A program made the translations under genes and the position numbers. From positions 1 to 9,839 of the IMG/VR virus record IMGVR_UViG_3300029707_000042: DNA of 9,839 bases; one strand, written 5' to 3'. Positions 1-9,839 of this stretch are shown piece by piece (position 1 is the first letter of the stretch; each line of letters begins with the position of its first letter). Source of the stretch: a virus. Lineage: Duplodnaviria > Heunggongvirae > Uroviricota > Caudoviricetes. Below the pieces are notes generated by a model. The model had not been told where the DNA came from. It worked only from the letters and a program-made list of their open reading frames with translations, and ran no database searches.

Positions 1-48
1 TTCGTTGACTTCAACAACGCGCACCCCGTGGTGGTAATCCTGAGCCAT
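1..48 (-). CDS. Phage tail sheath protein (P2 gpFI-like), first 16 codons only; the gene continues beyond the window start
   Basis: Reverse complement of 1..48 reads ATG GCT CAG GAT TAC CAC CAC GGG GTG CGC GTT GTT GAA GTC AAC GAA = MAQDYHHGVRVVEVNE. This matches the N-terminus of P2-type sheath proteins as I recall it (MSDYHHGVQVLEINE...). AGGAGG Shine-Dalgarno on the minus strand at 58..63, 9 nt upstream of the ATG. Only 16 residues are visible, so the call depends on recalled similarity. Confidence 0.5.
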   Translation of the reverse strand, partial: MAQDYHHGVRVVEVNE

Positions 49-123
49 AGTGGCGAACCTCCTGATTGGATTAGGCTTCGCCCTATGTTGAAGTGATTGT
101 GCCTGACAAACAGCTAAACGCAG

Positions 124-143
124 TTGTGTCGTTATTCACACAA
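124..143 (-). promoter_or_regulatory. Putative P2-type late-promoter activator site (TGT-N12-ACA dyad) upstream of the sheath gene
   Basis: Sequence ttgtgtcgttattcacacaa at 124..143 has perfect inverted 6-bp arms TTGTGT/ACACAA and contains TGT (125..127), a 12-nt spacer, and ACA (140..142). The dyad centre is about 85 nt upstream of the sheath ATG at 48, compatible with the roughly -55 position of Ogr/Delta-type activator sites in P2/P4 late promoters. No strong -10 hexamer is evident. Confidence 0.3.
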
Positions 144-190
144 AATAACGGTATTTGTCTGCTTGCAGGGATAATCAACATAATGCTGAT

Positions 191-757
191 TCAGGGGGAT
201 TCATTGATCTTATTTGCCGGAAATTTTCTATAAATGGTAGAAACGCCTACATCAAAAATCAGTGCAATACGCTGTCTTGATTCTCCGGCCTCGAGTAAAC
301 GCCCAATCTGTGCCCACTGTTCGGTGGTCAACTTAGGACGGCGTCCACCTACTCTGCCTTTGGCACGAGCTGCAGCCAGCCCTGCCCTGGTACGTTCAAC
401 TATCAGTTCGCGTTCCATTTCAGCCAGGGCACCCATGACATGAAAAAAGAAACGGCCCATTGGGGTACTGGTATCAATACTGTCAGTCAGGCTTCTGAAA
501 TTCACACCACGCTGGCGCAACTCTTCTATCAGCGTAACAAGATGCCGCATACTGCGCCCCAACCTGTCCAGCTTCCAGACAACCAGCGTGTCTCCTGCCG
601 ATAGTGTCCTGAGTAGTTTTTTCAGCCCCGGTCTGTCGGACTTAGTGCCACTGATTTTGTCCTCAAAAATCCGCTCACATCCCGCGCAGTTCAGTGCATT
701 ACGTTGCAAATCGGTGTTCTGGTCATTTGTTGACACGCGTACATAGCCAATAAGCAT
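191..757 (-). CDS. pin: Serine DNA invertase (site-specific recombinase, Pin/Gin/Hin/Cin family)
   Basis: Translation MLIGYVRVSTNDQNTDLQRNAL...LVVWKLDRLGRS...GRFFFHVMGALAEMERELIVERT... has the resolvase/invertase catalytic N-domain with the active-site serine in the RVST motif and a C-terminal helix-turn-helix (GVSTIYRKF). It is near-identical in pattern to Gin/Pin as I recall them. The ORF track starts at 763 (MIMLIGY), but the second ATG at 757 has an AGGGGG Shine-Dalgarno at better spacing. Stop codon TGA at 191..193. It lies immediately beside an invertible tail-fibre segment. Confidence 0.95.
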   Translation of the reverse strand: MLIGYVRVSTNDQNTDLQRNALNCAGCERIFEDKISGTKSDRPGLKKLLRTLSAGDTLVVWKLDRLGRSMRHLVTLIEELRQRGVNFRSLTDSIDTSTPMGRFFFHVMGALAEMERELIVERTRAGLAAARAKGRVGGRRPKLTTEQWAQIGRLLEAGESRQRIALIFDVGVSTIYRKFPANKINESP

Positions 758-812
758 GATCATCCCCCTGAATAAAAACCGGAGATGATGCCAGTTAGCT
801 GTTACCTCTGCA

Positions 813-838
813 TTTTCTTAAACGTTGGTTTGGGAGAA
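813..838. repeat. Crossover site A of the invertible segment (pix/gix-like 26-bp imperfect palindrome)
   Basis: TTTTCTTAAACG TT GGTTTGGGAGAA fits the 12-2-12 layout of hix/gix/cix sites with the AAAC..GGTTT core. Its inner half plus core (TTGGTTTGGGAGAA, 825..838) is exactly the reverse complement of 2660..2673 in site B. Confidence 0.8.
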
Positions 839-1321
839 GGCTCAGCGTTACCCGTTGGTGTGCCTGTTCCGTGGCCTTCAGCCACACCACCAACAGGCTG
901 GCTGAAATGCAACGGTGCACCTTTTTCTGCCGAAGAGTACCCAAAACTGGCAAAGGCTTACCCAAAGTTAAAATTACCGGATTTGCGCGGTGAGTTTATT
1001 CGCGGGTGGGATGATGGGCGAGGTGTTGATTCCGCGAGACTGCTACTTTCAAGTCAGGCAGCATCTATCCTTGAACATAACCATGAAATGCAGGGATGGA
1101 CCGGCAACCCACTCATGGCTAGAGATGTTTATTCATCCATGTCATCCGTATTTGCGGTGCAGTTGAGCATTGGCGATGGCGGGTTATTGTATTCGTGGAA
1201 GGATGGGAGTGGAACAACAAATGACAGTAAACGAATGAATAGAACAAATCATGTCAGTTCCGGCGCCGGTGATGGTAGCCCGCGAAACATTGCATTTAAC
1301 TACATTGTGAGGGCTGCATAA
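827..1321 (+). CDS. Silent alternative tail-fibre C-terminal (receptor-binding) cassette; has no independent start and would be fused to the constant fibre N-terminus after inversion
   Basis: In-frame continuation from the crossover site (GLGE codons are shared with the expressed fibre gene). The product contains the conserved fibre motif ...CNGAPFSAEEYPKLAKAYP...LPDLRGEFIRGWDDGRGVDSAR typical of Mu S / P1 S / P2 H / lambda Stf C-terminal regions. Stop TAA at 1319..1321 is directly followed by a tail-fibre-assembly gene. The ORF-track start at 785 is judged an artefact. Confidence 0.75.
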   Translation, partial: GLGEGSALPVGVPVPWPSATPPTGWLKCNGAPFSAEEYPKLAKAYPKLKLPDLRGEFIRGWDDGRGVDSARLLLSSQAASILEHNHEMQGWTGNPLMARDVYSSMSSVFAVQLSIGDGGLLYSWKDGSGTTNDSKRMNRTNHVSSGAGDGSPRNIAFNYIVRAA

Positions 1322-1924
1322 ATGGAACAGGCTATTTTGGGAAAAGACGGTTACGCTTTAAATGATGGGGAAATCATCGTACATAACTATGATGGCGAAA
1401 CGCGGGAATATATTTCTACATCAACTGAATATCTCGCTGTCGGCGTCGGTATCCCGGCATGTTCTTGTTTAGATGCACCAGTTACACATAAAGCTGGTTA
1501 TGCAATCTGTCGCTCTGTAGATTTAAATTCATGGGAATATGTGCCAGACCATCGCGGTGAAGTTGTCTATAGTACCGAAACGGGAGATACCAAAGAAATC
1601 ACAGTTCCGGGTGATTACCCTGAAAATACAACCACTATCGCCCCGTTAACGCCATACGATAAATGGGATGGTGAGAAATGGGTGACGGATACCGAGGCAC
1701 AGCATAGCGCCGCAGTAGAAGCGGCAGAAGCACAGCGCCAGTCGCTGATTGATGCTGCAATGGCTTCCATCAGTCTGATTCAACTGAAATTACAGGCTGG
1801 GCGGAAGCTGACGCAGCCAGAAAACACCCGACTTAACGCTGTGCTGGATTACATTGACGCGGTGACGGCAACAGATACCAGCACAGCGCCGGACGTCATC
1901 TGGCCTGAACTGCCGGAGGCGTAG
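1322..1924 (+). CDS. Tail-fibre assembly protein (chaperone) partnered with the silent fibre cassette
   Basis: 200-aa ORF starting one nucleotide after the cassette stop. C-terminus ...LDYIDAVTATDTSTAPDVIWPELPEA matches the Tfa-family C-terminal pattern and resembles the C-terminus of the convergent gene 1896..2336. Position is equivalent to Mu U' or e14 TfaE. Confidence 0.85.
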   Translation: MEQAILGKDGYALNDGEIIVHNYDGETREYISTSTEYLAVGVGIPACSCLDAPVTHKAGYAICRSVDLNSWEYVPDHRGEVVYSTETGDTKEITVPGDYPENTTTIAPLTPYDKWDGEKWVTDTEAQHSAAVEAAEAQRQSLIDAAMASISLIQLKLQAGRKLTQPENTRLNAVLDYIDAVTATDTSTAPDVIWPELPEA

Positions 1925-2336
1925 GCCATTCAATATCTGGCGCACCGGAAGTATCGACCAGTTCCAGTGCGTCCAGATAATCCAGCCACAAATTATATTG
2001 CACCAGTTCCTCACCTTTCAGACGACCAATTGATGCTTTACCTGGCCATTGTTTACTGTTGATGTATTCGTTGGCCTGGTTAATCAATTGCTGCTTTTTA
2101 GTTTCGGCTGATGCAATTTGTTCTTCACGTGTTGGTGGAGGAACATCTGCCCAAGCTGGCATTCCGTCGCCTGCGGTAATTCTGCGCTTACCTTCGGGCG
2201 GCGTGTCATGGAAATATTCCCTGAAAATAGCTTCGTCTATGTCTACGCCTTTTCCTTCTGGCCATTGCCCTTTTGCAGCGTAAACAGACTGTAGGGCGTA
2301 AGGGTACGCCAGATTATCAATATATAAATATTTCAT
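1896..2336 (-). CDS. Tail-fibre assembly protein (chaperone) for the currently expressed tail fibre
   Basis: 146-aa ORF. ATG at 2336 lies 2 nt after the fibre stop (TAA 2339..2341). C-terminus ...LDYLDALELVDTSGAPDIEWPTPPAVQAR is Tfa-like. The 3' end overlaps the convergent tfa gene by 29 bp. Confidence 0.85.
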   Translation of the reverse strand: MKYLYIDNLAYPYALQSVYAAKGQWPEGKGVDIDEAIFREYFHDTPPEGKRRITAGDGMPAWADVPPPTREEQIASAETKKQQLINQANEYINSKQWPGKASIGRLKGEELVQYNLWLDYLDALELVDTSGAPDIEWPTPPAVQAR

Positions 2337-2338
2337 AA

Positions 2339-2962
2339 TTAACGCCCTTTCGCAAAGAAAGCTCCACCTTCAAATCCATAGTTACAATGCGCAACAAATC
2401 CTGTTCGCGTCCAGTTAGTTGCGCCCCACATATTCCCACCACCAAAACCGCCGTCATATACAATCACTACGTATGGCTCCTGCGTAAAAGGAATGGGGAA
2501 AGTCACATTTGTAGATACCGCCGCGGCGTTAGTCGGGAAATTAATTCTTCCCCACTGTTCAATTGAACCATCAGGCAATTTTTGCCAGCCAGATCCTGAT
2601 GAATAAGCTGACATGTCTGGTATCTGATTCGCCCCAGTCCCCACATTCCTTTTCGCCGCTTCTCCCAAACCAAGGTTTTCGAGAGCCGTTTTCACCGTGC
2701 CATCCGATTTGATATCGCCAAACGGATTCTTGCGGCTTAACAGCAGCGCACGAAGTGCGGTAAGCAGCTGGTCATGCCGCCCTTTCTCCAGGCTGGCACC
2801 GGAGGCCTCCACCACGCTACAAAGTTCTTCCTGCAACATGTCAAAGTAGTCATCATCCAGATCGGTGGCAGGTGTGCCGGTCTGGGGGTTACCACGGGTA
2901 AAACCGTTCTTACCCGCGCCGAACTTATCCTTCTGCGCGGTTTTCGTGTCTATACGATGCAT
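2339..2962 (-). CDS. Short tail-fibre protein in its current orientation (constant N-terminal part 2673..2962 plus variable C-terminal part 2339..2672 inside the invertible segment)
   Basis: 207-aa ORF. ATG at 2962 with GGAG Shine-Dalgarno 6 nt upstream, starting 3 nt after the stop of the upstream gp48-like gene. The N-terminus (..[28 protein letters not shown]..) resembles the fibre N-terminal constant region of Mu S-type fibres. Crossover site B lies inside the coding sequence at the ENLGLGE codons. Confidence 0.85.
2660..2685. repeat. Crossover site B of the invertible segment (pix/gix-like), located inside the tail-fibre coding sequence
   Basis: TTCTCCCAAACC AA GGTTTTCGAGAG has the 12-2-12 layout. 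2660..2673 is the exact reverse complement of 825..838. The outer halves differ from site A (7 of 12 positions match). Confidence 0.8.
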
Positions 2963-2965
2963 GGA

Positions 2966-3550
2966 TTACTCCGGATATTTAAAAATTACGTAGGTATGCG
3001 AAGGGCAGAGTTTGTTAAGCACGCACTCGACAACGGTGTCGCCCCAGATACGCAGTGCGGAATCACAGGGATCGCCACATGTCATCCAGGTGGTGTTGGT
3101 GGCGGCTGGCATGTTGACCTGCCAGTAATACCGCCATTCCGGCGCATTCACTGCGTCAGTACAGGCCGATGAGCAGGTGAACGTGCTTTTATCGTATCGC
3201 GTGATAGTGGCGTCTGGTCTGCCCAGGGCAGCAAGCTGTGCAAGATAAAAATCCTCATTGATGCCGCCCGCCAGATTAACCTTCGCATCCAGCCGTTGCT
3301 GACGCTGGCGAAGGGTCTGTGTCCCTGCGGGAATACATTCATCCGGCAGACCGCACAGACGCTCCCAGCGGTTTATCAGTTCAGTGGTGGTGCGCGGATC
3401 CAGCTCCCGCATCAGGGCATCCGCACGCTGATGAACGCGGGTTAATGACGGTGCCGCACCGGCAATCGCCGGATCGCTGACTGACCACGCCGGACCGGGC
3501 GGCAACAGTGCCGACAACAGACGGATATAATCATCGTTTGTCACGTCCAT
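2966..3550 (-). CDS. Tail/baseplate protein, Mu gp48 / P2 gpI-like (DUF2313, YmfQ-like)
   Basis: 194-aa ORF. Start overlaps the stop of the J-like gene. It sits immediately upstream of the tail-fibre gene, as in Mu (gp48-S) and P2 (I-H). Call is from position, size and general sequence character, not a verified alignment. Confidence 0.75.
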
Positions 3551-4590
3551 GAAATCGTCCCCAGAACCGCCAGCTCATTTTTTGCAATGGAGATATTGTC
3601 CGCCGGGGCAAGCAACTGATGGCTGTATTCCCCGTTCGCACCGGAAATCGCTTCACTGATACGTGACACCTTCAGTTCTCCCTGCGGATAACCATCACGC
3701 AGCAGGAACGAACGCAACTCGGCGGTGATGGCAGCCCGTATTTCCGGTGTGTCCGGCGTCACGCGGATATGAAAATCCACTTTATGCGCCACCGGCCTGA
3801 ATACATACAAATCAGAGCCTGCCACCGGGGCCAGTGGCTCGATATGTTGTCTTGCCGCCGTTTCCGTTGACTCTTCCGGAATGGGATTAATCAGGTCACT
3901 GCTGGCAATCATCACACCGACAGTCCCCGTTCCCATCCAGTGTCGGTATGTCCATGCGCGGGTAATGCCGGGCACTTCTTTAGCCCAGACGACATAGTCC
4001 CCGTCAGCCCCGCCCTGAGGCGTCCAGTAATACCGCTCAATGACGCGGGCGCGCCACGTTTCCAGCTCTTCAGTATCAAATCCGCCTGTCAGGGTGTCAG
4101 CCACACCGGAAGACGGCAGACCATTCACCGGCGTGACCAGGATTAATGCCGTACCGTCGTCAGCGTTACCGACCGCGCCTGTAGTTGAGCAAGTGATCGG
4201 CACACGCAGGACACCACCAGTGCTGGTTGCATCGGCAGTTGCCGTGTACTGAACCAGGTCATCGCGCTGAATAACACTCCCGGCGGTCACCTTCAGGCCA
4301 TCGCTGACACCTTCCCAGCGCATATACCCGCTGGCAGCCGTGGCCCCCTTGCGCGGACACCGTTTCATCGCAGCATGTCGCGCCAGCCAGGACTCATCGC
4401 ACAGATCAGGCAGCATGTTCATTGCCAGATAATCGATGTAACCGTAAACCGTATGCAGCGCCGCCGCATACACCTTTGCCCGCACGTCTTCATCCATGCG
4501 CCGGAGCGTGTCGCTGACGTCCAGCCTGGCGAATAAATCGTTACGGAGCATACTGATATTTTCTGCCAGCGTCNNNNNNNNNNNNGCCAT
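3541..4590 (-). CDS. Baseplate J-like protein (Mu gp47 / P2 gpJ family); 5' end uncertain because of the N run
   Basis: About 340-350-aa ORF with the conserved position between the gp46-like and gp48/I-like genes. The true start is either ATG 4590 (upstream of the N run) or the internal ATG near 4551 (ISMLRND), which would give a short overlap with the preceding gene like the other junctions in this operon. Confidence 0.8.
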
Positions 4591-5005
4591 GCGTTATCGC
4601 ACTCCACAGATCATCAAAAGAAATCATTACCGGTCCGTCACGACGCCAGAGAGTGATACTGTTACCCAGTTCATTAATCCCGGTGCGGCGGATATCCAGA
4701 TCAATACGGGACACCACGCCATCATCAATCATCCATTGCAGGCATTCGCGGATATACCCCCTTACCGTCTGCACCAGCTGATTGGTCAGTTTGCTGCGCT
4801 GAAGCAGCCACAGTCGGGAGCCGTAACGGTCATTCTGTACCGCAGGCCAGGTATCCCCCCACCATCCCATCGGGACGTCGGCGTTGTCATCAGGCTCCGC
4901 CCGCCGCCAGGTAAACAGGGAAATCACCACGGCGCGGGTCAGCGGATCCAGCGGTGCGCTGGCGCAGGTGCGTTTACCGTTCACCGTCAGCCACAGTTCC
5001 ATCAT
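4541..5005 (-). CDS. Baseplate protein, Mu gp46-like (phage GP46 family); 3' end interrupted by the 12-nt N run
   Basis: ORF starts with ATG at 5005, overlapping the stop of the V-like gene, and is about 150 aa. Small protein between the spike (gp45/V) and J-like genes, as in Mu. The C-terminal about 14 codons are uncertain because of the Ns at 4574..4585. Confidence 0.65.
   Translation of the reverse strand: MMELWLTVNGKRTCASAPLDPLTRAVVISLFTWRRAEPDDNADVPMGWWGDTWPAVQNDRYGSRLWLLQRSKLTNQLVQTVRGYIRECLQWMIDDGVVSRIDLDIRRTGINELGNSITLWRRDGPVMISFDDLWSAITHGXXXXDAGRKYQYAP
4574..4585. other. Run of 12 ambiguous bases (N): assembly gap or masked sequence
   Basis: Seen directly in the sequence (gtcnnnnnnnnnnnngccat). 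It falls at the junction of the gp46-like and J-like genes. Confidence 0.99.
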
Positions 5006-5550
5006 GCCTCCATCGCTTTATCAGGTTTGTCGGTGTTACTGCCCTGACCGTTCTCTCTGTGACGATGCCCGTTATAGGCAAGCCGCATCGCTGACATGGT
5101 GGTGCCGCTGGAGTCGCACAGGTCTTTCACCTGTCCTGTCACTTCCAGGTCCATTTCAAAACGTGCTTTAGGTGAATTGCGAAACGTGATCGTTTTACCT
5201 GCACCGTCCACCACGATCCCCTCCCGGGTCAGCGTCACGGACTGCCCCTGATCGTCATAGACAGCCACCTCACCCGTCTGCAGCCCTTTCAGGCGGTAAC
5301 GCCGATCCGACACCGTAACAACCACCGCATGAGAACGGTCGCCATCCGGAAACAACACCACCGCTTCCGCACCGCTGTTTGCCCTTGCGGTAAAACCGTA
5401 AGGTTCAAGATGTTCAACCCCGGCTTTGGGTTCACCGGCAATCAGGGACACATCCACGGTCTGACATTTCGTTGCGGCACTGATGCTTTTCACCACGGCC
5501 CGCCCAATCAGCCCGAGGAGTTGTCGCTGTATGGTTTCAATCGCCCTCAT
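5002..5550 (-). CDS. Baseplate assembly / spike protein, Mu gp45 / P2 gpV-like
   Basis: 182-aa ORF. The start ATG shares one nucleotide with the upstream stop (TGATG). The C-terminal region contains an H-x-H motif (YNGHRHRENGQG), like the metal-binding apex of gpV/gp45-type spikes. Position between the gpD-like and gp46-like genes. Confidence 0.8.
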   Translation of the reverse strand: MRAIETIQRQLLGLIGRAVVKSISAATKCQTVDVSLIAGEPKAGVEHLEPYGFTARANSGAEAVVLFPDGDRSHAVVVTVSDRRYRLKGLQTGEVAVYDDQGQSVTLTREGIVVDGAGKTITFRNSPKARFEMDLEVTGQVKDLCDSSGTTMSAMRLAYNGHRHRENGQGSNTDKPDKAMEA

Positions 5551-6629
5551 CAGAACGGGTCCTCCTGTACTCTGGCTTTTTTCTTTTTCCGCGCGCCGGG
5601 ATCTTCGGGTTCAGGCAGATAAGCATCAGGCGGGCCGACACGGATTTCCGTCAGGGTGCCGTTCTGGTCCTGAGTAAACGTGACTTCCGAAACAAGCAGT
5701 TCGGTATTGTCGAAACCACAGACCGGATCAAAGACAATCACCCGCTGGTTGGGCTGCCACAGCGTACCGTTACCCTGTCGCCAGCCCTGCACCACATAGG
5801 TGGTTTCATCCGTCCGCGCCGCCCGTTGTCGGGCTTCAAAGTCAGCACGCGCAATACAGCCTGCCCCCGTGGCCTGCCCTGTCTGCCTGATATACATCGG
5901 ACGGTAACGGGCAATAAATGCGTCCTCTGTGCGGGCCCGCAGCGCGGTGGTGGTGGCCTCACCGAAATCATCGTCGTTTCCGGCACGCTGCCCCGCCACC
6001 TGGTAAACTGAAAACCGCTCCCGGATACTCTTCTCCGTATCACAGGAAAGGATGTTTTCCCCAAGTACCAGCGCGGTATGTGCCCGCGTTGAGCCAATAC
6101 CGCCAATCACCAGCCTGCCGTGCGGGTCGTCGTAAGCCAGTGCCTGCTGCTGACCGAGTATTTTGTTGATTACCTCAATCACCGTTTCACCGTGATCAGG
6201 CTGGACGTCAGGAATAACACCCGACGGCGCACCGTTGTTCACCACCTCAATGCCGAAGGGCGCAGCAAGCGCCTGCGCAATCTGTACCAGCGATCGTCCG
6301 TTAAACTGTGTCGGTTCGGCTGCACAGTCAATCAGATCAGCGGTTAGACTGCGTCCGGCAATACCGGTGCTGACCGAACGGGCATCGTAACGAACGGGCG
6401 TCGCCTCCACCCAGCCGGTGATCACCAGCTCATCACCAATCAGCACTTCCACTTTTGAACCGTTTTTAATGCGCGGCTGAAGCGTGGTGATACCCTCATC
6501 TCCCGGCCACTGGCGGGTGATCTCCACACTGAAATCCCGCGCCAGTCGTTCAACACCGGCACCGATGCGCACCGATGTCCAGCCATTCCACTCCCGGCCA
6601 TTTACCCGTAGCGTGACGTTATCGTTCAT
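5550..6629 (-). CDS. Tail/baseplate hub protein, Mu gp44 (P) / P2 gpD-like
   Basis: 359-aa ORF. ATG at 6629 overlaps the stop of the gp43-like gene. Size and position match Mu P / P2 D-type proteins. Basic C-terminal tail (ARKKKKARVQEDPF). Confidence 0.75.
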   Translation of the reverse strand: MNDNVTLRVNGREWNGWTSVRIGAGVERLARDFSVEITRQWPGDEGITTLQPRIKNGSKVEVLIGDELVITGWVEATPVRYDARSVSTGIAGRSLTADLIDCAAEPTQFNGRSLVQIAQALAAPFGIEVVNNGAPSGVIPDVQPDHGETVIEVINKILGQQQALAYDDPHGRLVIGGIGSTRAHTALVLGENILSCDTEKSIRERFSVYQVAGQRAGNDDDFGEATTTALRARTEDAFIARYRPMYIRQTGQATGAGCIARADFEARQRAARTDETTYVVQGWRQGNGTLWQPNQRVIVFDPVCGFDNTELLVSEVTFTQDQNGTLTEIRVGPPDAYLPEPEDPGARKKKKARVQEDPF

Positions 6630-7999
6630 TGCACTGGCACCTTCAGAGGGATCACCGGCACAAAGCCGGGATGCGTAATGGCATTACGCCGGATAATGTC
6701 CGCGTCACGCGCCGCGTTATCAAACCAGGTCGCCGCCAGCACCAGCGCGGGTAAAACCTCATCCGGCGTGCGCTGAATGATCCGTGCAGACTGTTCAAGG
6801 CGCGTGTTGATATCCGCATTCAGATCTGCTTTCACCCGGCGCAGCGCCAGAAACAGCGCATCACTGGTTGTACGGGACAACTCCTTATCAATTGCCGTAT
6901 TCAGTGTGTCGCGAATGTCAGTCAGTTCTTCCCACGTCGGCAGGTCAACCGTGTTTTTCACCGCCGGTGCATTGTTCAGTGCCGGATGCGTGACGGAAGG
7001 CCAGCCAGTGCTCTGCGCAGGTGTTGTTGCCTGCCCCACTGCGGAATTCTGCATCACCGCGGAAGTTGTTGGCGCAGGTAATCGGGTGACGGCATACGCC
7101 GCTTCGCTGATTGCGGTCGTACGAAGGGTGCTGGCAACCACGTTACGCTGCTGCGTCGCCGTGGCGGTGGTTTTACTGTCCGTTTTCCAGACGCCGCGCG
7201 GTTGCAGATCGCTGCCGAGGCTGACACCGGAAAGCGTTTTGATCATGGTGACCAGGTCGCTGGCGTTACCATAAAGGCGTTTCCCGGTACGCCACATTTT
7301 CTGCACCTGCTCAACGAAATTTTTGCCTGACGATGGCGGCGGCAGAAGTACCGAGATATCCCCCTGCAACAGCCTGGCGGCATCCGATACGGCAGAATCC
7401 ACCACTTTCATCGCATCAGAAACATACCCCAGCATTATGCTGGCATTACCGATAACGTCGTTCTGCACGAAATCCGCCACACCATCGATACTGAAACCGC
7501 TGAAGCTGTCACTGATGCAGTCATCCAGTGCAGAACAGGATGACATCAGCGTCTGCGCCGTCGCCGCACCTGATGTGGGGTAAGAGAGTTCTCCTGCTTC
7601 GACAAACTTCAGGTCAAAGCGGACAATACGCCCTTCACTTTTCGATGTGCTGACCCGAACTTCCCCGTCAACACAGACTTTCAGCTCACCATATGTCGGG
7701 TGGACAAGCGTGCCGGGACCGGGTTTATTCAGCGCTTCAATCAGGCGATCGCGCTGGTCAAAGCAGTCATCTCCCACCACATAAGCTGTGATGGACGGGC
7801 GGAAAGTGACTTTTCCCAGATCTTCGGTATAGGGCTTGTCGCGGTTCGGGTATTCATGTGTTTCCACACGGCGACCGGTTCCCGCACTTTCTTCTTCAAC
7901 CTTAAACGGCACACCTCGAAATGATGCTTCAAGTAGCTTTTCACGCCAGCCACTTCGAGAATCAGAGGATAGGTACGAAGAAATATGAGAAAAATCCAT
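6626..7999 (-). CDS. DNA circulation protein, Mu gp43 (N)-like tail protein
   Basis: 457-aa ORF. GAGGTG Shine-Dalgarno 5 nt upstream of ATG 7999. N-terminal region (..FRGVPFKVEEESAGTGRRVETHEYPNRDKPYTEDLG..) resembles the DNA-circulation N-terminal domain family. Position between tape-measure and gpD-like genes as in Mu and SfV-type tails. Confidence 0.75.
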   Translation of the reverse strand: MDFSHISSYLSSDSRSGWREKLLEASFRGVPFKVEEESAGTGRRVETHEYPNRDKPYTEDLGKVTFRPSITAYVVGDDCFDQRDRLIEALNKPGPGTLVHPTYGELKVCVDGEVRVSTSKSEGRIVRFDLKFVEAGELSYPTSGAATAQTLMSSCSALDDCISDSFSGFSIDGVADFVQNDVIGNASIMLGYVSDAMKVVDSAVSDAARLLQGDISVLLPPPSSGKNFVEQVQKMWRTGKRLYGNASDLVTMIKTLSGVSLGSDLQPRGVWKTDSKTTATATQQRNVVASTLRTTAISEAAYAVTRLPAPTTSAVMQNSAVGQATTPAQSTGWPSVTHPALNNAPAVKNTVDLPTWEELTDIRDTLNTAIDKELSRTTSDALFLALRRVKADLNADINTRLEQSARIIQRTPDEVLPALVLAATWFDNAARDADIIRRNAITHPGFVPVIPLKVPVQ

Positions 8000-8014
8000 G
8001 GCGTCACCTCAAAT

Positions 8015-8040
8015 AAAAACCGCGTGTAAACGCGGTTTTT
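8015..8040. terminator. Rho-independent terminator, structurally bidirectional; terminates the inserted gene 8056..8544
   Basis: AAAAACCGCG-TGTAAA-CGCGGTTTTT: GC-rich CCGCG/CGCGG stem extended by A5/T5, with a 6-nt loop, followed by a T/U tract on both strands. It lies 15 nt after the stop of the inserted gene and ends about 12 nt before the gp43-like RBS. Confidence 0.7.
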
Positions 8041-8055
8041 TATTAGGTAATAAAA

Positions 8056-8544
8056 TTAACGATCATAATCAACATTATGAGTATCTATTCTACATGATGA
8101 ATAAGTAATTCCGCTTTCACCACTAATATTTACGCCAGCCTTTACCTTCCCTGTTTTCGTAACATCAACAAAGAATTGCCCTCTTGGCATTTTAAATGCA
8201 AAAGAGAAACCAATAATTTCCGAGTCAAAGTTATTTTCATCCTCACTAATTGGTACAATAAAAGTCAATGGTGCAGATTGTGAGTTATTTTCAAAATCAA
8301 AAGCACCAATGCTTTTATTAAACTCGTAGGATGCTTTTTTTATTAAAAGAGTTCCACTTGCCGACTTTGCTGGGCATATTACAGACAGTCTATTTATTCC
8401 CTCTACATCTAGATCTATATTCTTATCCGCTGAAGTTTTAACGTTATCTATAAAGTATGTAGCAAGCTGCTTTTCCGTTACTGGCTTCGCAAAGGAGTTT
8501 AATGGCAGTCCTACAGCCAACAACAATATAAACATTTTCTTCAT
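8056..8544 (-). CDS. Inserted (moron-like) gene for a small secreted protein of unknown function, with a Sec-type signal peptide
   Basis: Reverse complement of 8521..8544 is ATG AAG AAA ATG TTT ATA TTG TTG (MKKMFILL...), with TAGGAGAG Shine-Dalgarno 3-4 nt upstream. The N-terminus MKKMFILLLAVGLPLNSFA-KPV is a classic signal peptide with an AxA-like cleavage site and no lipobox cysteine. The gene is visibly AT-rich compared with the flanking tail genes and is followed by its own terminator. The ORF track begins at an upstream GTG (8577), which I consider less likely. A long ORF in AT-rich DNA is unlikely to arise by chance. Confidence 0.7.
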   Translation of the reverse strand: MKKMFILLLAVGLPLNSFAKPVTEKQLATYFIDNVKTSADKNIDLDVEGINRLSVICPAKSASGTLLIKKASYEFNKSIGAFDFENNSQSAPLTFIVPISEDENNFDSEIIGFSFAFKMPRGQFFVDVTKTGKVKAGVNISGESGITYSSCRIDTHNVDYDR

Positions 8545-8608
8545 ATTCTCTCCTACATTCAGCACAAACTTTACCACTCAATAACCCTACTTGATTAAAG
8601 TAGTTATA
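8545..8608 (-). promoter_or_regulatory. Putative promoter region for the inserted gene (possible extended -10 TGgTAAAGT); also contains a short hairpin CTACTT-gatta-AAGTAG at 8587..8603
   Basis: 63-bp AT-rich spacer between the tape-measure stop (TAA, 8609..8611) and the inserted gene's ATG. On the minus strand, TGGTAAAGT (complement of 8568..8576) resembles an extended -10 element. No convincing -35 hexamer is present. Speculative. Confidence 0.25.
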
Positions 8609-9839
8609 TTATCGTCTGAATGGAGAATACCCCACATCGTGCGTGATTTTCATCAGGGGATCGGCTTTGCCCGGTACATCAATTATCTTCATACCTGGCG
8701 GAGCATTCTCGAACGTGACTTTCAGCTCGCTGTGCTGTGTCATGGAAGAAGATGGATTCAACAGCGGAACATTGGGTTTGTACTGACTCAGGCTGGCCTG
8801 ATACTGCTCGTACTCTTTACGATCAAAAAAAGGCGTCCAGTCTGAAGCCAGAAACAGCCCTTTATTATCCAGCCAGTTAACCGTATCTTCAGGAACAACA
8901 CTTTCCAGAGTATCTTTAACCGGCTCATACATCAGGGTTCCCAGAAAACCATATACCCCGGCCTTCCCGATAAAGCCGCGGCCTTTCCCCATCAATCCCG
9001 TTTCTGCCGATACCTTCCCCAGCGTACGCATCTCTCTGGTCACTGCGGTAATGGATTTGGTAACGTCAGCAACCCATTTGGTTGCCATAAACAGGGCAAT
9101 CGCTTTCAGAACAGTTTCCCATCCCCCCATCATCTGCGCCGTTTCATCCACCACGTGCCAGACTTTTTTTATGACAGGACCTACGGTTTCCCAATTATCA
9201 ATAATGAGGTAAGCGCCACCAACCAGAAGAGCAATCAGCCCCTTAGCAGGCGTCATATTCATCACACCGCCGAGAACTTTCATGATTCTGGACAAAGAGC
9301 CTGCAGCGGCCCCCACTGTCAGTAAAGCCAGACCGATTTTAGCAATGGTCTTAACGAGCTCCGGGTTTTCACGGACAAACGTTCTCACTTCCTCAAGGAG
9401 CGGTTTTACCGCTTCAAGACCATCATTAACCTCAGGAAGAAACGTTTCCCCCAGAGTGGAAGAAATGGCATCAAGTTGATTTTGCAGAAGTAAAAGCTGG
9501 TTTTCCGTCGTCGCTGCCCTCGAAGCATATTCCTTCTGCATCGAACTGCCATACTGCTGGGAATCCGCAACCCGCCTGAAGTTGGTACGCAACAAATCAA
9601 GGTTAGTCAGCAGAGGAGCTATCGCGCCCAGAGACTCTTTCCCGAACAGGGCATTCAGCACAGCTGCCTGTTTTTCTTTAGGCACTTTAGCCATCGCATC
9701 CAGTACAGACAGCATGGTTCCCCGGGCATCTTTCTGCATATCAGCAGCTAATTTCTTCGGATTGATCCGCAGAAAACGTAATGCCTGTTTCTGCGATTTT
9801 GTCGCGGAATTTCCCGCGGTCAGGGAAAGCATGAAGTTC
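8609..9839 (-). CDS. Tail tape-measure protein, C-terminal part (the gene continues beyond the window end)
   Basis: Open frame running to the window edge with no upstream stop. The product has the usual tape-measure character: helical, Q/A/L-rich N-proximal part and a hydrophobic glycine-rich segment (IAKIGLALLTVGAAAGSL...GLIALLVGGAYLII). Position is immediately upstream of the DNA-circulation and baseplate genes, as in Mu-type tails. Confidence 0.8.
   Translation of the reverse strand, partial: NFMLSLTAGNSATKSQKQALRFLRINPKKLAADMQKDARGTMLSVLDAMAKVPKEKQAAVLNALFGKESLGAIAPLLTNLDLLRTNFRRVADSQQYGSSMQKEYASRAATTENQLLLLQNQLDAISSTLGETFLPEVNDGLEAVKPLLEEVRTFVRENPELVKTIAKIGLALLTVGAAAGSLSRIMKVLGGVMNMTPAKGLIALLVGGAYLIIDNWETVGPVIKKVWHVVDETAQMMGGWETVLKAIALFMATKWVADVTKSITAVTREMRTLGKVSAETGLMGKGRGFIGKAGVYGFLGTLMYEPVKDTLESVVPEDTVNWLDNKGLFLASDWTPFFDRKEYEQYQASLSQYKPNVPLLNPSSSMTQHSELKVTFENAPPGMKIIDVPGKADPLMKITHDVGYSPFRR

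Follow-up and report, generated by a model that had tools for sequence, protein, structure and literature searches.

The window, a stretch of 9,839 nucleotides analysed as a whole, very probably carries an intact copy of the e14-type Pin/P-segment inversion system known from E. coli prophages, in which a 1.8-kb segment flips and so exchanges the tail-fibre tip together with its chaperone. Inversion switches of this kind, the e14 P segment as well as its relatives in Mu, P1 and P2-like elements, are textbook cases. The switch in the window is one already described, the e14 P-segment system, and is not new (PMC12529663, PMC4272514); it is unusual only in its location, at the junction of halves from two prophage types. 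The features on which this assignment rests are the following.

1–48, minus strand: start of a P2-type tail sheath (FI) gene, which runs off the window (positions 1–839 are 100% identical to the P2-type prophage of CP015085.1)
191–757, minus strand: pin, serine DNA invertase, 188 aa from MLIGYVRVS (Pfam Resolvase, 2.3e-53; HTH_7, 1.5e-15)
668–739, minus strand: putative enhancer, a stretch homologous to the P1 cin enhancer (pin nt 19–90)
785–1321, plus strand: pin-proximal ORF of StfE type, an 18-aa leader with its own ATG plus a collar cassette at 827–1321 (Pfam Collar, 4.5e-15)
813–838, plus strand: pin-proximal crossover site (site L), 25/26 identical to the K-12 e14 site and equal to the pin-proximal site of isolates MEI1-1023/MEI2B-1023
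827–2671, no strand: invertible segment between the core dinucleotides, equivalent to the e14 P segment (computational flip; natural inversion of the equivalent interval)
1322–1924, plus strand: TfaE-type tail-fibre assembly chaperone, cognate to the collar cassette (Pfam Caudo_TAP, 2.5e-31; position of K-12 tfaE)
1896–2336, minus strand: TfaP-type tail-fibre assembly chaperone, cognate to the gp53-like cassette (Pfam Caudo_TAP, 4.6e-30)
2339–2962, minus strand: tail fibre of StfP type, 207 aa, present state (Pfam Gp53-like_C; PHROG tail fibre, 4e-80)
2660–2685, minus strand: fibre-proximal crossover site (site R), 26/26 identical to the K-12 e14 site
2966–3550, minus strand: YmfQ/Mu gp48-type baseplate protein, directly upstream of the fibre gene (Pfam Phage_Mu_Gp48; position of e14 ymfQ)

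The two crossover sites are inverted relative to each other, and both are 12-2-12 dyads around a TT core. Site L reads TTTTCTTAAACG TT GGTTTGGGAGAA on the plus strand and site R reads CTCTCGAAAACC TT GGTTTGGGAGAA on the minus strand; common to both are the 14 nt TTGGTTTGGGAGAA (inner half plus core), present exactly twice in the window, once per strand. The inverted repeat extends to 19/20 nt, and the AAAC(C/G)-NN-GGTTT architecture is present in both sites. Coordinates and the shared 14-mer agree with the initial annotation, which had also placed the sites on GLGE codons of the fibre gene and the cassette; G-L-G-E codons indeed cover both copies, in the same frame. No third site was found within 839–2659 when this interval was scanned with AAACCNNGGTTT (≤2 mismatches) and with the 14-mer (≤3 mismatches), and the additional candidates, all outside the segment, were chance-level matches. 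Exactly two sites were counted in 20/20 loci examined (the window and 19 related loci), with inner half and core unchanged in 37 of the 40 sites. Since there are only two sites, the simple two-state switch proposed earlier stands. A multi-site shufflon was considered and rejected, the window and each of the 19 related loci having two sites only; the window likewise lacks the more than two sites that mark multi-site inversion systems, such as Min of p15B and the multi-segment P2-like locus of EPEC, and that allow several cassette permutations there.

Within the segment, two fibre C-terminal cassettes oppose each other, each followed by its own Caudo_TAP gene, as the claim of one cognate chaperone per cassette requires. 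The 207-aa fibre was found at the claimed position, as was the cassette at 827–1321 on the plus strand. The fibre is 200/207 identical to the LR-46 fibre and consists of a constant N-terminus (2674–2962) and a variable gp53-like C-terminus (2339–2671). In the present state the TfaP-type chaperone is expressed; the exact protein occurs in 904 blocks of the collection, in several tail backgrounds. Look-up of the exact TfaE-type protein returned no record. The pin-proximal ORF matched the PHROG tail collar fibre family (1e-62), and its leader is conserved with K-12 StfE. All four reading frames, those of the cassettes and of the chaperone genes, are still open. When the segment was flipped computationally, both reading frames were kept, with an in-frame fibre of 207 aa in the present state and of 261 aa in the flipped state; the latter was identical to a natural fibre protein at 254/262 positions, which bears out the proposed in-frame swap of the C-terminus. 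The collar cassette had also been called silent. This is correct in that it is not joined to the fibre in the present state, but the term is too strong, because the cassette belongs to an ORF with its own ATG (785–1321) whose K-12 counterpart after inversion, StfE2, was reported to be expressed and active (PMC12529663). Upstream of the fibre gene, the YmfQ-type gene is the first of a Mu-tail-type structural module that reaches the end of the window.

The identification of a Pin-type invertase held up: besides its Resolvase and HTH_7 domains, the protein has 85% identity to K-12 PinE (74% to Mu Gin, 77% to P1 Cin) and keeps the catalytic Ser9 as well as all other residues invariant among five aligned invertases. 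An alternative start, the ATG at 763, would give 190 aa. The P1 record places the recombinational enhancer at cin nt 19–90, where pin aligns without gaps. Identity between pin and cin is 78% in this stretch versus 69% in the rest of the gene, and identical codons are used at 10/19 conserved residues there versus 35/95 elsewhere. This excess points to a candidate enhancer but is suggestive only, because the active-site segment, where the protein is most conserved, is encoded by the same stretch. G-N13-C 15-mers at pin nt 22 and 71 are kept in most homologues, a criterion too degenerate to count as evidence for Fis. A promoter and terminator scan gave chance-level counts with no clear promoter for pin or for the cassettes; no promoter-like site for pin was detected in 764–860, nor a convincing promoter signal near the crossover sites. 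Transcription of the fibre gene is expected from an upstream late operon.

From this anatomy the following mechanism may be proposed. Pin, a small serine recombinase, would bind both 26-bp sites, assisted by Fis on an enhancer in the pin 5' end, by analogy with the Hin/Gin/Cin/Pin family. Cutting at the 2-bp TT core of both sites, followed by 180-degree rotation and rejoining, would invert 827–2671. In the present state the constant 96-residue fibre N-terminus carries the gp53-like C-terminal domain, with the TfaP-type chaperone following; in the inverted state the same N-terminus would be joined in frame at G-L-G-E to the collar-domain C-terminus, with the TfaE-type chaperone following. If the system is active in this genome, as its parts suggest, the two states could confer two alternative receptor specificities on virions or on a prophage-derived tail structure. 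The composite element of two prophage halves may be defective, like its relative in strain FORC_042 (see below), and host-range switching of a viable phage is uncertain here for that reason.

Natural inversion at these site sequences was observed. Over 12 kb the sister isolates MEI1-1023 and MEI2B-1023 differ in one respect only: an interval of 1,848 bp in one is the exact reverse complement of that in the other, and the sites at its ends have the sequences found in the window. The flipped junction was colinear in six finished genomes at 96.4–96.7% identity, and both states are present among the loci with the exact TfaP-type protein; the segment thus occurs in both orientations among relatives. 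For e14 itself, flipping in clonal K-12 cultures has been shown by whole-genome sequencing and PCR (PMC4272514), and the TTGGTTTGGGAGAAGG repeat is known to flank the 1,797-bp P segment, which is inverted by PinE, PinQ and PinR (PMC12529663).

These observations bear on three other accounts of the region. A 14-nt inverted repeat arising by chance is not rare in 9.8 kb (an estimated 0.2–0.4 pairs expected), and other inverted repeats of 12–17 nt do occur elsewhere in the window. The significance of the sites was therefore drawn from other features, namely the family-specific dyad architecture, the identity with e14 sites, the in-frame placement in two fibre cassettes beside an invertase gene, and the inversion at these sequences in MEI1-1023/MEI2B-1023; against these, a chance match with no recombination function is effectively refuted. 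It is also very improbable that the region is a frozen relic, with sites and pin present and inversion lost, for instance because the enhancer or pin expression is gone. Such decay would fit with the defects in the composite relative (IS3 and a truncated portal in FORC_042) and with the undetected promoter-like site for pin at 764–860; however, the Pin ORF is intact with every invariant residue in place, both sites are canonical and match proven sites, cassettes and chaperone genes have stayed open, and other Pin paralogues are able to act in trans (PMC12529663). An account compatible with Pin-mediated inversion, which we consider improbable though somewhat less so, is that the host has co-opted the switch for phage defence, as reported for K-12 e14. 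Inversion would then join the 18-aa leader ORF to the gp53-like cassette, and the relevant output would be the resulting 124-aa StfE2-type protein, masking receptors of the outer membrane, not the virion fibre. Consistent with this, the leader ORF and its ATG are conserved (MMPVSCYLCIFLNVGLGE in the window, MPFACYFFIFINVGLGE in K-12), the ORF that results from the flip, at 124 aa, is built like the 125-aa StfE2 of K-12, and the composite element is unlikely to be a viable phage; in K-12, the StfE2 defence phenotype and trans-acting Pin paralogues have been reported (PMC12529663). But the resemblance stops at the leader-fusion architecture: only 33/126 residues are identical to K-12 StfE2 overall, 14 of these in the 18-aa leader, so that the gp53-like domain is unrelated in sequence and receptor masking is not transferable to it. 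Moreover, the cassette now in the pin-proximal ORF is the collar one (StfE type), reported to be ineffective (PMC12529663), and the ATG of this ORF directly abuts GGAG, a poor spacing for translation initiation.

The pin side of the window (1–839) is of P2 type and the fibre and baseplate side is of Mu-tail/e14 type. By the sheath gene start at 1–48, the pin side is recognisable as a P2-type prophage right arm; in CP015085.1 the gene after pin encodes a 390-aa sheath protein, and strain 2017.02.04CC has the same layout. Judged by sequence comparison, pin and the left site come from a P2-type prophage, and the fibre gene and the right site from a Mu-tail-type prophage. Across backgrounds the outer half-sites track the background while the inner half-site is near-constant. 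Mismatch profiles showed the segment at ~1700–2600 to be about equally close to P2 and Mu-tail backgrounds, and the segment allele is present at 98.7% identity in at least three contractile-tail backgrounds; for these two reasons, the P2/Mu-tail junction can be placed only to ~840–2685. No match starting at position 1 was found in finished genomes with window 150–3600 or the whole window as queries. With a two-flank query, a composite was found among finished genomes in E. coli FORC_042 (NZ_CP025318.1), where the ssrA island carries a P2 right arm, extending from ogr to the sheath gene and on to pin, that is fused across the invertible segment to a Mu-tail-type fibre, baseplate and head module. 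Its flanks match the window at 97.3–97.6% identity, and neither crossover site is damaged; as in the window, a similarly placed extra ORF lies between the tape-measure and DNA-circularisation genes. In FORC_042 the segment, ~1.5 kb long, is of another allele: its two cassettes are both gp53-like, and its chaperones differ from those of the window. This composite stands between its native neighbours smpB-ssrA and ypjA-pinH-ypjC, as in K-12. An origin through a long-range chromosomal inversion was rejected, both flanks being native neighbours.

The adjacency in the window could nevertheless be an assembly artefact, the P2-type pin side (1–839) and the Mu-tail-type fibre side (2686 onward) belonging to two prophages of one genome that were joined through a near-identical segment; each prophage would then still have a real switch, in an arrangement other than the exact one seen here. 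Several observations favour this. In the ten places listed, the exact Pin protein stands only in P2-type contexts, and seven of these contigs break off within the left site or close to it. A search of genome_contigs, viral_contigs and metagenome_contigs for the exact 82-nt right junction gave no match. The exact fibre protein occurs on one contig only, a metagenome contig at 3.7x coverage, which continues with unrelated genes immediately beyond the stop codon of the fibre gene and is probably itself chimeric. With one allele at 98.7% identity in several backgrounds, the segment is also a repeat able to mislead an assembler. We nevertheless regard an artefact as unlikely, because the finished chromosome of FORC_042 contains the same composite with both sites intact and between native neighbours, from which the window probably represents a real local prophage fusion. 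A more far-reaching reading, which we consider doubtful, is that the crossover sites serve, besides the two-state switch, as portable recombination joints between unrelated prophages. A P2 right arm and a Mu-tail module would have been fused at or within the segment, with the window and FORC_042 as conceivable but doubtful records of such events; just as tentatively, the working switch would have been kept and its cassettes later replaced precisely between the sites. Retention would possibly reflect host use, as a tailocin-like particle or a StfE2-type defence. If the joins were catalysed by Pin and not by homologous recombination, a DNA invertase would be responsible, in natural genomes, for site-specific fusion between elements and for the exchange of cassettes.

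As a switch, the locus adds nothing new, and the exact site sequence has already been published. It matters for annotation, since the two states give different fibre proteins and the pin-proximal cassette is routinely labelled as a separate "phage tail protein", and for assembly, since short-read contigs tend to break at the locus. It is mildly interesting for prophage evolution, with a segment allele shared across backgrounds and one lineage in which the halves are fused across the segment.

Alignment against e14, which the initial annotation had proposed as a check, gave the K-12 gene order (ymfQ-stfP-tfaP-tfaE-stfE'-pinE) in the same orientation state. Sites R and L are identical to those of K-12 e14 at 26/26 and 25/26 positions, respectively, and the repeat published for e14, TTGGTTTGGGAGAAGG, is also the one seen here. 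DNA identity is 95.8% over the constant region of the fibre gene and ymfQ. In contrast, the cassettes and chaperones are different alleles, with 82–85% DNA identity over the parts that can be aligned; the gp53-like domains of the two elements are essentially unrelated. A complete Mu-type baseplate and tail module lies upstream in the window, whereas it is truncated in e14, and the 3' flank of pin is a P2-type sheath gene in the window and mcrA in e14.

In the P2-type prophages of E. coli (for example in CP015085.1 and strain 2017.02.04CC), the invertase gene lies between fibre gene H and sheath gene FI; invertible P2-like loci are known in EPEC (PMC4272514). Window 1–839, comprising the sheath start, pin and the left site, is 99.8–100% identical in these prophages, and in strain 2017.02.04CC the whole of window 1–2684 is matched at 95.8% identity. 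The inner half-site and core are the same as in the window. The P2-type segment, however, serves a gpH-type fibre of 438–518 aa (PF12571) with the fibre-proximal outer half-site TTCTCGCATACC, whereas that of the window serves a Mu-tail-type fibre of 207/261 aa with the outer half-site CTCTCGAAAACC.

Mu Gin/G and P1 Cin/C use the same recombinase family and the same 12-2-12 site design, the window sites being organised like those annotated as cix in the P1 record and like the boundaries of the Mu G segment. The logic is also the same, a constant fibre part being combined with variable Sv or Sv' and with chaperones U or U'. P1 cixL and cixR share a 14-nt inner half plus core (TTGGTTTAAGAGAA), as the window sites do, and their enhancer is located at the 5' end of the invertase gene, where the window has its putative one. 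The Mu (~3 kb) and P1 (~4.2 kb) segments are larger than that of the window, and the fibres that they serve are much longer. Mu has a TC core and full identity between its two sites, whereas the core in the window is TT; in P1 the 3' end of cin faces the segment, whereas in the window it is the 5' end of pin.

The genes, assigned by domain and profile matches, and the two crossover sites, the pin-proximal site L and the fibre-proximal site R, lie in the following order.

191–757, minus strand: Resolvase/HTH_7 protein (pin)
813–838, plus strand: site L, TTTTCTTAAACG TT GGTTTGGGAGAA
827–1321, plus strand: collar-domain fibre C-terminus
1322–1924, plus strand: Caudo_TAP chaperone
1896–2336, minus strand: Caudo_TAP chaperone
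2339–2962, minus strand: 207-aa fibre with a gp53-like C domain at its end
2660–2685, read on the minus strand: site R, CTCTCGAAAACC TT GGTTTGGGAGAA
2966 onward, minus strand: Mu gp48/YmfQ, baseplate J, gp46, gp45, gp44, DNA-circularisation protein and tape measure

The two chaperone genes converge, sharing 29 nt at their 3' ends (1896–1924), as they do in all loci with this segment allele.

Both sites are 12-2-12 dyads centred on AAAC(C/G)-NN-GGTTT, and the TT core is common to the two. The 14-mer TTGGTTTGGGAGAA occurs in exactly two copies in the window, one per strand, within a repeat that reaches 19/20 nt; in each repeat copy, the reading frame of a fibre-related ORF encodes G-L-G-E. The initial annotation had described two inverted sites sharing a 14-bp inner half plus core and falling on GLGE codons, and the sequence agrees with it on both points. 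Its view of a two-site switch, not a multi-site shufflon, also holds, since motif searches of the segment (827–2671, between the TT cores) found no third crossover site. Other inverted repeats of similar length are listed elsewhere in the window, and one of 14 nt in 9.8 kb is not improbable alone. The case therefore rests on the site architecture and on the context, both sites lying inside two opposed fibre C-terminal cassettes that adjoin a serine invertase gene.

When the segment was reverse-complemented computationally, the constant 96 residues of the fibre came into frame with the collar cassette to give a 261-aa product, 254/262 identical to a natural 262-aa fibre in a Mu-tail-type prophage. 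With a 1-kb query, the flipped junction was matched colinearly (96.4–96.7%) in six finished E. coli genomes; for the unflipped junction, 17 records reached 80% coverage or more, and the 15 of them that were listed matched it at 98% coverage. The exact window TfaP, the chaperone of the gp53-like cassette, was found at 10 loci, two in the window state and eight in the other. That the site sequences recombine is indicated most directly by isolates MEI1-1023 and MEI2B-1023, whose chromosomes are equal in length and, over 12 kb, identical except for an exact 1,848-bp reverse complement with ends in the same site sequences as those of the window.

Pin is intact, with 85% identity to PinE, 74% to Gin and 77% to Cin, and carries the active-site serine in MLIGYVRVS. 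In the P1 record the Cin enhancer is annotated at cin nt 19–90, to which the part of pin at window positions 668–739 aligns gap-free. Nucleotide identity to P1 is 78% in this stretch and 69% in the remaining gene, and identical codons number 10/19 and 35/95, respectively. This somewhat higher conservation, which extends to synonymous positions, fits an enhancer but is not decisive, since the active-site region is encoded here too. A perfect 12-nt inverted repeat (ATTCAGGGGGAT / ATCCCCCTGAAT, 189–200 and 762–773) exactly brackets the pin ORF, so that it overlaps both the stop codon and the ribosome-binding region of the gene. Chance could account for it (~0.5 such pairs are expected in 4.2 kb), though its placement is curious.

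The collar cassette 827–1321 had been called silent. It is not joined to the fibre, but the term needs qualification: the cassette lies inside an ORF (785–1321) with its own ATG, and equivalent ORFs in other genomes are annotated by PGAP as 'phage tail protein'. In K-12, inversion puts the gp53-like cassette behind the leader of this ORF, and the product, StfE2, reportedly blocks adsorption of T2 (PMC12529663). The leader is conserved in the window, where inversion would yield a computed StfE2-type ORF of 124 aa, 33/126 identical to K-12 StfE2, mostly in the leader. The gp53-like domains are unrelated, so the architecture is common to both and the phenotype cannot be assumed.

Judged by sequence identity, the window appears to be a composite of a P2-type pin side (1–839) and a Mu-tail/e14-type side (2686–9839). 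Positions 1–839, which take in the initial 48 nt of a tail sheath gene along with pin and site L, are 99.8–100% identical to P2-type prophages but only 71–81% identical to the pin side of two Mu-tail-type prophages (L019, L021). Rightward of site R the window is 97–99.7% identical to Mu-tail/e14-type elements and unalignable with P2-type ones. Among the ten places shown, the exact Pin protein occurs only in P2-type contexts, adjoining the sheath gene. Across 20 loci the inner half and core are constant in 37/40 sites, the remaining three having one substitution each, and outer half-sites and flanks track phage background; in the window the pin-proximal flank is P2-type and the fibre-proximal flank Mu-tail-type. 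The segment shares 98.7% identity with a single allele that circulates across several backgrounds, Mu-tail, P2 and Wedge1-type among them.

A mis-assembly through this shared segment was first suspected: many short-read contigs stop in or beside site L, and the exact window junction was not found in three public contig collections. However, one finished chromosome, E. coli FORC_042 (NZ_CP025318.1), carries the same arrangement, the only one recovered when the two flanks alone were the query. Its flanks are 97.3–97.6% identical to the window, both sites are intact, and the segment there is another allele, in which both cassettes are gp53-like. The order there is smpB, ssrA, P2 right arm (ogr to sheath), pin, segment, then Mu-tail-type fibre, baseplate, tail and head genes, IS3 and ypjA'-pinH'-ypjC. 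In K-12 the CP4-57 island lies between smpB-ssrA and ypjA-pinH-ypjC, ordered and oriented as they are in FORC_042, so the composite arose locally in FORC_042, the simplest route being a deletion between two elements resident together; the K-12 order and orientation of the flanks rule out a long-range chromosomal inversion. We consider it quite likely that the window composite is real. Either Pin acting at the sites or homologous recombination within the segment may have made the join.

Seven public contigs with the exact Pin protein (L009–L015) end inside or beside the left site, equivalent to 764–838; short-read assemblies evidently break at this invertible or repeated segment. Metagenome contig L016 (ENA ERZ827420 NODE_529) is 99.7% identical to window 2329–9839; at its positions 10624–11844, DUF3793 and flavodoxin genes directly follow the fibre stop codon in place of the tfaP present in the window. 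Coverage is 3.7x, and the contig is probably chimeric. L027 (GCA_029115715.1, 1–12441) looks like another composite: it has the same segment allele, lambda-type tail genes Z, U, V, G, T and a tape measure overlapping pin on the pin side, and P2-type I, J, W baseplate genes on the fibre side. The free Shigella phage SfIV and relatives (H34–H36) match ~1410–3600 (part of tfaE, tfaP, fibre and baseplate genes), with no match to pin or the collar cassette; what they carry looks like a fixed remnant of the invertible region that lacks the invertase.

Farther right, a 173-aa ORF (8056–8577, minus strand; within 7952–8618) between the tape-measure and DNA-circularisation genes looks like a moron. It has a signal-peptide-like N-terminus, matches phrog_5586 (unknown function) and gave no Pfam match; its surroundings form an island of 34% GC, compared with ~51–59% for the neighbouring genes. 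The ORF is missing from the LR-46 relative and present in L016; at the equivalent position FORC_042 carries a hypothetical ORF. Where the baseplate J and gp46 genes overlap, the sequence is broken by a 12-N run (4574–4585), which looks like masking and not a scaffold gap, since the reading frames on either side carry on.

K-12 e14 has the same gene order and orientation state as the window (ymfQ, stfP(ycfK), tfaP, tfaE, stfE', pinE). Its site CTCTCGAAAACC TT GGTTTGGGAGAA is 26/26 identical to site R, and TTTTCATAAACG TT GGTTTGGGAGAA is 25/26 identical to site L. The e14 P segment, 1,797 bp between 5'-TTGGTTTGGGAGAAGG-3' and its complement, is reported to be inverted by PinE, PinQ and PinR (PMC12529663), and both orientations coexist in clonal K-12 cultures, as detected by WGS and PCR (PMC4272514). 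By annotated coordinates, P1 cixL and cixR have TTGGTTTAAGAGAA in common, the same sharing of inner half plus core as in the window, and the two Mu gix sites are identical over their full length. Such sharing is a trait of the invertase family. The defining features of the Hin/Gin/Cin/Pin family were found, with the enhancer as a candidate and inversion seen in relatives, and the window system belongs to it, as the e14 P-segment type; the e14-type sites, intact Pin and in-frame flip support the original reading of a Pin-type fibre switch. The system is already known, site sequence included, and only two points go beyond the textbook picture: its setting in a composite prophage, and the way one segment allele has spread as a module.
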